In this document: positions 4,985 through 7,190 of the stretch, piece after piece
Numbering within the stretch: position 1 is the first letter of the stretch
Layout of the letters: each line of letters opens with the position of its first letter
From: a virus
UHGV virus genome: UHGV-1549577
Strand: one strand, 5' to 3'
DNA: 11,400 bases
Notes under the pieces: generated by a model
Told to the model about the DNA's origin: nothing
The model's input: only the letters and a program-made list of their open reading frames with translations
The model's database searches: none
Made by a program: the position numbers and the translations under genes

Positions 4985-6294
4985 GAGAGGCGGGCTGGAC
5001 CAGCCTGTTTCAGGCGGTGGCTGAGCCCTTTGCCGGTGCCTGGCAGCAGGGCGTGAAAACCGATCCGGAAAGTGTCCTCTCCTTTCATGCGGTGTTTTCG
5101 TGCATTTCGCTGATATCCCAGGATATCGCCAAAATGCGGCTGCGCCTGATGCAGACGGATACACAGGGGATCCGCCGTGAAAAACGGCAGGGGGATATTG
5201 CCCGTCTCTGTCGTCGTCCCAATGCACAGCAGAATCGTATCCAGTTTTTTGAACTGTGGCTGAACGCCAAACTGCGTCACGGCAATACGGTGGTGCTGAA
5301 AATCCGTAATGCCCGGGGGCAGATCAAAGAACTGCGTATTCTGGACTGGAGCCGGGTTGAACCTCTGGTGGCGGATGACGGCGAGGTGTTCTATCGCATC
5401 ACGCCGGACCGGAACTGTGGGATCACTGAGGCGGTGACGGTGCCTGCCCGGGAAGTGATCCACGACCGGTTTAACTGTTTTTTTCATCCGCTTATAGGAT
5501 TGCCGCCGGTGTATGCCGCCGGGCTGGCGGCCATGCAGGGGCATCATATTCAGGAAAATTCGACGTCTTTTTTCAGAAATGGCGGCAGGCCGTCCGGGGT
5601 GATTGAGATCCCCGGCAGTATTACGGAAGAAAATGCGAAAAAACTGAAGAGCAACTGGGACAGCGGGTATACAGGCGAAAATGCGGGTAAAACGGCCATT
5701 CTGAGCAACGGGGCAAAATACAACCCCACGACGTTTTCACCGGTGGATGCGCAGACGGTGGAACAACTGAAGATGACCGCTGAAATTGTCTGTTCGGTGT
5801 TCCGTGTCCCGGCCTACAAGATTGGCGTGGGACAACCGCCTTCCAGTGACAACGTGGAGGCGCTGGAGCAGCAGTATTATTCCCAGTGCCTGCAGACGCT
5901 GATTGAGTCCATTGAACTGTTACTGGATGAGGCGCTGGAAACGGGGGAAAACGAGAGTACAGAATTTGATGTCACCACGCTGCTGAGAATGGACAGTGAG
6001 CGGCGCATGAAAACGCTGGGGGATGCGGTGAAAAATACGCTTCTCACGCCCAATGAGGCCCGTAAACGGGAGAACCTGCCGCCTCTTGCGGGAGGTGACG
6101 CACTGTATCTTCAGCAGCAGAACTACAGTCTGGAGGCGCTGTCCCGTCGTGATGCCCGTGAAGATCCGTTCGCGTCGTCCGGGAAAAGAGTTTCAGCCGA
6201 GCTGCCTGACGGCGCATCTGACGGTAATAAGGCAATCAGTGAAACAGAGCATGATGTGGTGAAGGCGATGTTCAGGGGGATACTGAAAAAATGA
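4930..6294 (+). CDS. Portal protein (HK97 family)
   Basis: 454 aa. Segments FFRNGGRPSGVIEIPGSITEENAKKLKSNWDSGYTGENAGKTAILSNG and CSVFRVPAYKIGVG match the conserved portal core. GGAG lies about 10 nt before the ATG. Confidence 0.85.
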   Translation: MWNLLRRTRKNQKSGRDVREAGWTSLFQAVAEPFAGAWQQGVKTDPESVLSFHAVFSCISLISQDIAKMRLRLMQTDTQGIRREKRQGDIARLCRRPNAQQNRIQFFELWLNAKLRHGNTVVLKIRNARGQIKELRILDWSRVEPLVADDGEVFYRITPDRNCGITEAVTVPAREVIHDRFNCFFHPLIGLPPVYAAGLAAMQGHHIQENSTSFFRNGGRPSGVIEIPGSITEENAKKLKSNWDSGYTGENAGKTAILSNGAKYNPTTFSPVDAQTVEQLKMTAEIVCSVFRVPAYKIGVGQPPSSDNVEALEQQYYSQCLQTLIESIELLLDEALETGENESTEFDVTTLLRMDSERRMKTLGDAVKNTLLTPNEARKRENLPPLAGGDALYLQQQNYSLEALSRRDAREDPFASSGKRVSAELPDGASDGNKAISETEHDVVKAMFRGILKK

Positions 6295-7190
6295 ATGAAC
6301 GTGAACTGTCCATTATCCGTGCACTGGGCGAAGAATTCGCCGCGGTGATAACGGATTTACAGCGTACATTTGAAGAAAAGATGGCTGCGCAGGCGCAGCA
6401 GTCTGAAGAGAAACTGGCTTCCCTGTCCGCGGTACTACAGAAGCATGTGACGCTGGATGAGGTTCGCTCTGTTCTGCAGGCGATGGTGGATGATGCGGTG
6501 GGGGCCATTCCGGTACCGCGTGATGGTCGTGACTATGATCCCGATGTTCTGCAGAAGGCGGTGAATGATGCGGTCGCAAATATTCCGCTACCGGCGGACG
6601 GAAAAAGTATCACCCCGGATGATGTGCGTCCGATGCTTGAACAGATGGTGAAGGAGGCGGTAAGCCATATTCCTGTTCCGCGCGACGGTCGTGACTACGA
6701 TCCGGATGTTCTGCAGAAGGCGGTTCTGGATGCGGTGAGTGCCCTGCCGGTTCCGCAGGACGGGCGTGATGCCACGGCACTGGAAATACTCCCCGCCATT
6801 GACGATCAAAAATCCTTTCCCCGGGGCACGTATGCCACACACCAGGGCGGACTCTGGCGGGCGTATGAAAAAACGCACGGGATGCGGGGATGGGAATGCC
6901 TGGTTGACGGGGTGGCGGATATTGACGTCAGCATGATTGGTGAACGGTCGTTCTCTGTGGTGATCCGGCAGAGCAGTGGTCAGTGTACGGAAAAAACATT
7001 TTCCCTGCCGGTGATGCTCTACCGCGGTGTGTTCAGAGCCGGTGAAATCTACCACCCCGGCGATACAGTGACGTGGGGCGGCTCGTTGTGGCACTGCAAC
7101 AGCATGACCGGCGATAAGCCCGGAGACATTCATTCATCCGGCTGGACTCTGGCTGCAAAACGTGGGCGGGATGCAGGAGGCGGAAAATGA
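6291..7190 (+). CDS. Head-module protein with N-terminal coiled coil, four tandem ~27-aa repeats and a carbohydrate-binding-like C-terminus; function unknown
   Basis: 299 aa. It is translationally coupled at both ends (ATGA overlaps at 6291-6294 and 7187-7190). Repeats of the form DAVxxIPVPRDGRDYDPDVLQKAV occur four times. The C-terminus (YHPGDTVTWGGSLWHCNSMTGDKPGD...GW) resembles a CBM5/12 chitin-binding-type motif. Confidence 0.8.
   Translation: MNERELSIIRALGEEFAAVITDLQRTFEEKMAAQAQQSEEKLASLSAVLQKHVTLDEVRSVLQAMVDDAVGAIPVPRDGRDYDPDVLQKAVNDAVANIPLPADGKSITPDDVRPMLEQMVKEAVSHIPVPRDGRDYDPDVLQKAVLDAVSALPVPQDGRDATALEILPAIDDQKSFPRGTYATHQGGLWRAYEKTHGMRGWECLVDGVADIDVSMIGERSFSVVIRQSSGQCTEKTFSLPVMLYRGVFRAGEIYHPGDTVTWGGSLWHCNSMTGDKPGDIHSSGWTLAAKRGRDAGGGK

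Follow-up and report, generated by a model that had tools for sequence, protein, structure and literature searches.

The virus genome UHGV-1549577 was analysed over a stretch of 11,400 nucleotides (the window), which corresponds to a head-to-tail morphogenesis module, that of a lambdoid siphophage of Escherichia coli Shiga toxin (Stx)-phage type. Between the portal gene and the head-tail adaptor gene lies an open reading frame (ORF) of 299 amino acids, ORF X (6291–7190, + strand), which is the subject of this study. We propose, with a probability of roughly 0.45, that X is a low-copy virion accessory protein docked at the portal vertex, on the side of the portal crown. Three properties of X are firm, i.e., it is translated together with proteins of which each virion holds 12 copies, its position beside the portal gene is invariant, and it tolerates covalent joining to the portal C-terminus. 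The interior location, which we infer from the portal fusions described below, is the weakest step of this proposal.

The start codon of X (6291–6293) overlaps the portal stop codon (6292–6294), giving an ATGA overlap (6291–6294, + strand) indicative of translational coupling, with X in the −1 frame relative to the portal gene; at the distal end, the X stop codon (7188–7190) overlaps the ATG (7187–7189) of the Ad1 adaptor gene in the same manner. The ATGA overlap at each end bears out two claims of an earlier note on this DNA, namely that the 299-residue ORF between the portal and connector genes is coupled on both sides, and that it is a genuine gene expressed along with those of the head and neck. 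The same portal/X overlap is present in Atlantibacter, Kosakonia, Phytobacter, Buttiauxella, Enterobacter and Salmonella phage FSL SP-016, and the exact 299-residue protein is found in a public collection, in a cluster named 'phage portal protein' or 'carbohydrate binding domain protein'. It had also been considered that X might be a moron or a cargo gene with no part in virion structure; the only point in favor of this is the absence of X from HK97 itself. The GC content of X is that of the neighboring genes, no promoter or terminator flanks it on the + strand above shuffle-level counts, and synteny and coupling are conserved across genera, all of which leaves this explanation with a negligible probability.

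A search with the C-terminal domain of X, covering 1.84 billion cluster representatives, yielded matches in 5149 clusters at E ≤ 1e-3 and in 1701 at E ≤ 1e-10. In the best 150 clusters, the domain is located at the extreme C-terminus of proteins that are mostly 170–500 residues long; a portal part is present in only two, the remaining ~98% being stand-alone proteins. Distant members of 172, 214 and 658 residues sit between a PF04860-matching gene or gene fragment and a PF05135 adaptor gene, with short upstream overlaps of 4–8 nt, and the order portal-X-Ad1 is kept, with 4-nt overlaps on both sides, from E. coli to relatives in which the C-terminal domain is no more than ~50% identical. X is thus a constant and widely conserved member of the module type protease-major capsid protein fusion/portal/X/Ad1/Hc1, and can be regarded neither as an insertion nor as a broken portal. 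The statement in the earlier note that HK97-like head modules have no gene in this position holds for HK97 itself, but not for modules of this type, where X is constant. The same note could not match X to a known family, but X belongs to PHROG 2271/1289, annotated 'portal protein'. X matches PHROG 2271 (859 positions, 'portal protein') with E 5e-210, the best stretch being positions 663–859, and the upstream portal ORF matches positions 1–451. PHROG 2271/1289 and the RefSeq 'phage portal protein' (WP_001513216, WP_038428807) thus represent the same family as X, yet Pfam and NCBIfam scans detect no portal domain (PF04860/TIGR01537) in X; this domain lies wholly in the upstream ORF. The family is large, already catalogued in databases and, as far as we found, experimentally uncharacterized.

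The origin of the database label is apparent from a one-nucleotide difference between two types of alleles. Where the portal codons AGG GGG contain a tract of five G (G5; 6275–6279, + strand), which lies 12 nt ahead of the start codon of X, portal and X are two ORFs; with a tract of six (G6), they are fused in frame. The split form has the sequence TTC AGG GGG ATA and the fused form TTC AGG GGG GAT. Among 82 E. coli-type loci, G5 is present in 54/54 split copies and G6 in 28/28 fused copies. Portal and X are separate in phage BP-4795 (G5; ORF58 and ORF59), and form a fused portal of 859 residues (gp59) in phage 2851 (G6). RefSeq holds a single 'phage portal protein' of 805–807 residues in O145:H28 and ST131 prophages, and RefSeq/PGAP flags the two-ORF form as a 'frameshifted' pseudogene (e.g., NZ_CP135649.1, 2640–4900). 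In Atlantibacter, Kosakonia, Phytobacter, Buttiauxella, Enterobacter and FSL SP-016 (~48% amino acid identity), the portal always ends in ...K-TGA with the ATGA overlap, and the junction (ACC AAA TGA) contains neither a G-run nor a slippery A-run. Because the split form is the only state in these six other genera, it is the ancestral and normal one. The polarity adopted by RefSeq, in which the fused G6 form is intact and the split form broken, is opposite to that shown by the cross-genus comparison, and the 'portal protein' label on X in PHROG and RefSeq stems from fused alleles.

These data do not lend support to the suggestion that portal and X constitute one long portal gene, of which the window would hold either a frameshift-broken pseudogene or two ORFs joined by programmed −1 frameshifting. 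Such a gene would agree with the 'frameshifted' call by PGAP, with the −1 frame of X, and with the potential slippage sites near the junction, i.e., an A6 run followed by TGA, and the G-run followed by an AUA codon, which is presumably rare in E. coli. However, the split ATGA form is the sole state in six other genera that lack the G-run and the slippery A-run, stand-alone proteins make up ~98% of the 150 best family clusters, and BP-4795 and FSL SP-016, both of which we understand to have been isolated as phages, are split. Furthermore, the portal/X junction has no slippery heptamer that is conserved, either between genera or among E. coli copies; its sequence is variable (CTG AAA AAA TGA, GAG AAA ATG and ACC AAA TGA), and the candidate motifs are not even constant in E. 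coli. Programmed frameshifting, whether by P-site slippage at A6 plus TGA or by hungry-codon slippage at G GGG AUA, was rejected as a general mechanism since these motifs are not conserved, and the pseudogene reading was rejected on account of the split form being the sole state in the six other genera. A single long portal gene is accordingly regarded as very unlikely.

Sequencing errors do not account for the fused alleles, as the 28 fused loci of E. coli type stem from a large number of separate IMG/VR and GenBank entries and comprise nine distinct portal 3′ haplotypes. In a tree based on the 670-nt flank, they form a mostly coherent clade with divergence of up to 4% and one split copy nested inside. 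The X extension is intact in 27/28 fused copies, and the ratio of non-synonymous to synonymous polymorphism (pN/pS) in the fused clade is 0.15 for the portal 3′ end, 0.35 for the X N-terminus and 0.19 for the C-terminal domain (the latter from a motif-anchored alignment, as C-terminal lengths differ), similar to the values for split copies. An unrelated fusion of 1237 residues, P0135, consists of a portal, ~30 'LPEPEPLPDI-helix' repeats and the same C-terminal domain; it is identical in two separate metagenome assemblies of >100 kb (locus 4001–7714), with the same module order as in the window. In Moraxella phage Mcat9 (KR093633.1, 2726–4165), a 480-residue portal ends in a single CBM5/12-like motif (YKGVF..YQVGDFVTRNGSLWHC...NWTLAVKKG), where CBM denotes carbohydrate-binding module, which resembles a minimal portal-CBM fusion of separate origin that lacks repeats. 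By these comparisons, the portal C-terminus appears to have acquired an in-frame fusion on three separate occasions, in the E. coli G6 clade, in P0135 and in Mcat9. As to the state of individual prophages, a deletion in the O145:H28 prophage with a fused portal (NZ_CP007133.1, 6185–7244) joins truncated gp17-like and truncated tail-tip genes, which implies that this prophage copy is defective; the fused-portal copy in ST131 looks complete over the stretch examined.

Since the fusions are retained under purifying selection and have arisen repeatedly in lineages that are unrelated, we would place the site of action of X at the C-terminal face of the portal, i.e., the crown, on the interior side of the capsid. 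In portals of the HK97 fold, the C-terminus is found within the capsid, in the crown, and the fusions would therefore place X in the capsid lumen. In fused alleles, the last portal helix (..VKAMFRG..) runs into the ~50-residue helix of X, and would in this respect extend the crown inward like the C-terminal barrel of P22 gp1; unlike P22 gp1, X continues into repeats and a β domain. Carried to its full extent, the proposal would make X a capsid-interior module tethered to the portal crown and a widespread, unrecognized internal head protein that extends the portal inward, either as a detachable P22-type barrel or as a gp7-like tether with a CBM-like head, with the G5/G6 tract in E. coli deciding heritably between free X, which might be ejectable, and covalently tethered X. 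We regard this extended form as doubtful.

The N-terminal part of X is assigned, from a single-sequence AlphaFold2 (AF2) model and the N-termini of relatives, to an amphipathic helix (aa 1–52, 6291–6446, + strand) that is the proposed anchor. The AF2 model of the whole protein is poor (pLDDT 43.7), and secondary structure alone was taken from it; it predicts a long helix at residues 3–51 with pLDDT ~55–75. The segment MNERELS.I.ALGEEF is kept across enterobacterial genera, the helix measures ~35–50 residues in the family, and the smallest member, P0255 (172 residues), consists of the helix and the C-terminal domain. Of the coiled coil that had been proposed for the N-terminus, a long predicted helix is supported.

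The helix is followed by a spacer of four helix-loop repeats of 25–29 residues each (6450–6773, + strand), arranged as two super-repeats of 162 nt (54 residues). The presence of four tandem repeats, as read from the sequence before, was recovered by a repeat search in which the copies begin at 6470, 6545, 6632 and 6707, with a spacing of 75, 87 and 75 nt; the two 162-nt units share 74% identity over an aligned 125 nt in that search, and 67% nucleotide identity with 35/54 identical residues when recounted over the full 162 nt. A recount of the 38-nt cores at 6525–6562 and 6687–6724 agrees exactly with the two synonymous mismatches noted earlier (TAT/TAC and CCC/CCG). Tandem Repeats Finder reported no repeats in X, which is explained by the divergence of the copies. 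The spacer (aa 53–160) is acidic (pI 4.3, net charge −10) and Pro-rich. A comparison of repeat copy number among relatives, which had been recommended, reveals that the lengths of close relatives step by 54 residues (245, 299, 353, 407, 461 and 569), and the spacer ranges in the family from zero repeats to the ~30 of P0135. Weak Pfam matches in the repeat region (TetR_C_35, DUF4244, FliG_N and Spidroin_N) were dismissed as low-complexity helical noise, as almost none is individually significant and they differ between homologues. PF28083, which is precomputed for some homologues, gave no match in Pfam scans of X and its homologues.

The C-terminal domain (~140 residues) is the most conserved part of X across hosts, and the AlphaFold model based on a 144-sequence alignment is all-β with pLDDT 94.5. 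It has the small antiparallel β fold of ~45–60 residues that is characteristic of CBM5/12, and we read the model as two CBM5/12-like lobes split by a three-stranded meander. Lobe 1 (aa 168–207, 6792–6911, + strand; model strands E27–51) would be a weaker CBM5/12-like β unit (FPRGTYATHQGGLWRAYEKTHGMRGWEC), the β meander (aa 208–239, 6912–7007, + strand) contains model strands E54–61, E66–73 and E78–84, and lobe 2 (aa 240–292, 7008–7166, + strand) would be a CBM5/12-like unit with the pattern YRGVF..Y.PGDTVTWGGSLWHC...KPG....GWTLA. The best structural matches of the model are CBM5/12 chitin-binding modules, followed by Vibrio chitin deacetylases, which presumably carry tandem CBMs, phage tail fibers (7-7-1, Milano and Pa193), a contractile-injection-system baseplate protein, and T4 gp24, where the match presumably runs through the capsid insertion domain; no solved structure matches the C-terminal domain over its full length. 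The guess that the C-terminus is of CBM5/12 type is therefore confirmed at the level of the fold, with a Pfam match that stays below the family threshold: CBM_5_12 (PF02839) matches X at residues 249–270 (profile positions 3–24 of 44) with E 7e-4 and 20.0 bits, against a gathering score of 26.2 bits. Among homologues the score is 18–28 bits, and only P0030 (28.1) exceeds the cutoff, with P0028 and P0117 at 26.0–26.1. The suspected weaker second CBM copy upstream gains modest support from alignment of lobe 1 with lobe 2 by hhalign (P ~1e-4), and from Foldseek alignments that span 124–136 columns of the C-terminal domain, to proteins that we take to be carriers of tandem CBMs.

Compared with the CBM5/12 modules of Serratia ChiB, Streptomyces griseus ChiC (ChBD, 2d49), Pyrococcus (ChBD, 2rts) and Erwinia EGZ (CBD, 1aiw), X differs in the extra three-stranded meander between the lobes, in its sub-cutoff Pfam score, and in the non-aromatic residues at the position of the sugar-stacking pair. 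This pair is, as we understand it, a WW or YW after the central strand (e.g., AKWWTQ or AKYWTT). In the profile alignment, the YW of 2rts aligns to 'ed' in the family consensus and to 'SM' in X (..LWHCNSMTG..); other aromatic residues, i.e., Y100, W113 and W131 in model numbering, are conserved in the domain. Carbohydrate binding can therefore not simply be assumed. The strong conservation of the domain across hosts points to a conserved ligand rather than a strain-specific receptor; this ligand might be a glycan (e.g., peptidoglycan), DNA or the capsid wall. Short collagen-like GXY runs occur on one or both sides of the domain in many relatives, including P0158, P0240 and P0143, and there are relatives in which such a run comprises four triplets; in X itself, GXY-like stretches are limited to DGRDA and GRDAGGG. 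As a separate observation on this type of module, a short ORF with one CBM-like motif, 36% identical to residues 231–291 of X, directly follows an HK97-type capsid gene in a β-proteobacterial metagenome-assembled genome (2844–4180), and may represent another use of the same module, as a decoration protein.

The domain organization of X is also compatible with an external neck or head fiber ('whisker'), in which an N-terminal coiled-coil trimer, seated on the adaptor, on the neck or around the portal vertex, would carry the spacer and a glycan-binding CBM head for reversible binding to cell envelope, mucus or biofilm polysaccharide; the fusions would then be tolerated loss-of-function alleles, or be rescued by internal initiation. 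Like the fibers of the Agrobacterium phages 7-7-1 and Milano, T4 fibritin and phi29 gp8.5, X has an anchor, a stalk of variable length and a β head. Foldseek matches the C-terminal domain to the 7-7-1 tail fiber with E 6e-4, and its neighbors in BFVD are annotated 'collagen triple helix repeat' or ChiC_BD. The modular fiber architecture and the length polymorphism speak for this explanation, as do the GXY runs flanking the head in P0158, P0240 and P0143, the acidic Pro-rich linkers, which presumably resemble those between CBMs and glycoside hydrolases, the structural neighbors among chitinase CBMs and the tail fibers of 7-7-1, Milano and Pa193, and the coupling of X to the Ad1 adaptor gene as well. 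However, given the position of the portal C-terminus inside the capsid, fused copies would put the fiber on the wrong side, and the fused clades persist with an intact, constrained X extension. The canonical sugar-stacking aromatic pair is missing, and the high degree to which the head is conserved between hosts sets it apart from receptor-binding tips. X furthermore differs from the above fibers in being encoded between portal and adaptor rather than in a tail-tip module, and in being fused to the portal in several lineages. An external fiber is the strongest competing explanation, although on balance we consider it less likely than docking at the crown.

Several points count against docking of X at the crown. 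The combination of anchor helix, variable stalk, GXY triplets and CBM-like tip is a hallmark of external phage fibers, and the nearest viral structural neighbors of the C-terminal domain are tail-fiber-like proteins. The fusions need only a trivial one-nucleotide change at the ATGA overlap and could be tolerated null alleles, free X could still be made from the internal ATG in fused alleles, and recombination among co-resident prophages could import the signal of purifying selection from split copies. In addition, phage 2851 is only reportedly viable (Strauch et al., 2008), and our literature search found no virion proteomics, cryo-EM structure or genetics for any member of the X family.

A third location, on the icosahedral shell as a many-copy decoration protein similar to Hoc, gpD or Dec, had been raised as a possibility by the earlier note. 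X is coupled to the genes of the 12-copy portal and of the adaptor, and not to that of the major capsid protein, its position after the portal gene does not vary, fusions to the portal recur, and profile and structure searches reveal no likeness to known decoration families. The coupling to proteins of 12 copies and the recurrent fusion to the portal C-terminus make such a decoration protein very unlikely.

Portal-proximal minor head proteins are not without precedent: SPP1 gp7 and members of the MuF family are the products of a gene that directly follows that of the portal, and gp7 is portal-bound (PMC5576092). As for SPP1 gp7 and Mu gpF, the gene for X lies directly downstream of the portal gene. 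Unlike MuF proteins, X is composed of a helix, repeats and a CBM-like head, and searches for the MuF domain (PF04233 and PF06152) gave no match in X at E ≤ 0.01, nor in seven homologues at E ≤ 0.05, for which reason homology of X to MuF was rejected. SPP1 gp7 and the MuF proteins are dispensable for shell building. We rate X as a variant within known kinds, i.e., a portal-associated minor head protein or a phage fiber with a CBM tip.

For X as a protein of the portal crown, we envisage that it would be translated by coupling to the portal gene and recruited to the portal vertex, presumably in 12 copies or fewer, by its N-terminal amphipathic helix. The acidic, Pro-rich helix-loop spacer that follows would change its length by unequal recombination in steps of 54 residues, and would carry a rigid two-lobed CBM5/12-like head that binds a conserved ligand. 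One extra G would join X covalently to the portal C-terminus, and the fused X would then constitute an extension of the crown.

On the + strand, the remainder of the window comprises terS (496–1059), terL (1056–2717), a fusion of prohead protease (S78) and major capsid protein (2781–4718), a small ORF of 73 residues between the capsid and portal genes (4763–4984), the 454-residue portal gene (4930–6294; PF04860 with E 1.4e-81 over residues 54–382, TIGR01537 with E 1.4e-106), and, downstream of X, the gp6-like head-tail adaptor Ad1 (7187–7513; PF05135 with E 8e-8, PHROG 40 'head-tail adaptor Ad1'), a head closure protein (7523–7873), a gp10-like protein (7849–8316), the tail terminator (8313–8657), the major tail protein with an Ig-like C-terminus (8724–9440), and the tail chaperones G and T (9446–10125). 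The final ~70 residues of the portal form a tail outside the Pfam portal domain. Stx1a, Stx2a and Stx2c converting phages and many E. coli prophages are the nearest DNA relatives (90–93% identity), and a match is present in 1245/5426 complete E. coli genomes, at a median of four places per genome.

The 645-residue polyprotein at 2781–4718, in which an N-terminal S78 prohead protease is joined to the major capsid protein (PF04586 and PF05065), is a weak match to NF045541 (53 bits; cutoff 525). A protease or scaffold gene apart from this fusion is absent, and the portal gene lies downstream of that for the capsid. The 73-residue ORF (4763–4984) overlaps the portal start by 55 nt and is listed as 'conserved hypothetical protein' in related phages and RefSeq prophages. 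The C-terminal Ig-like domain of the major tail protein (Ig_2, I-set), which also matches PHROGs labeled 'Hoc-like head decoration', suggests a surface-exposed Ig module on the tail tube. In the chaperone region, a slippery heptamer A AAA AAG (9811–9817) is located directly 5′ of the stop codon of the tail assembly chaperone ORF (9446–9820), and the ORF at 9844–10125, in the −1 frame, is already open from 9796; by these features the heptamer is the canonical lambda-type G/GT programmed frameshift site of the tail chaperones.

The X-type domain is present in >5000 sequence clusters for which we found no experimental characterization, and its current labels are 'portal protein', 'gp6-like connector' and frameshifted pseudogene. 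A corrected label would re-annotate a very common prophage type, including Stx1 and Stx2c converting phages. BP-4795 (split) and 2851 (fused) constitute a natural allele pair that makes the location of X directly testable. If X resides inside the capsid on the portal crown, it would add a new kind to the internal proteins associated with portals; if X is an external fiber, Stx-phage virions would carry a conserved adhesin with a bearing on how phages are retained in the gut.

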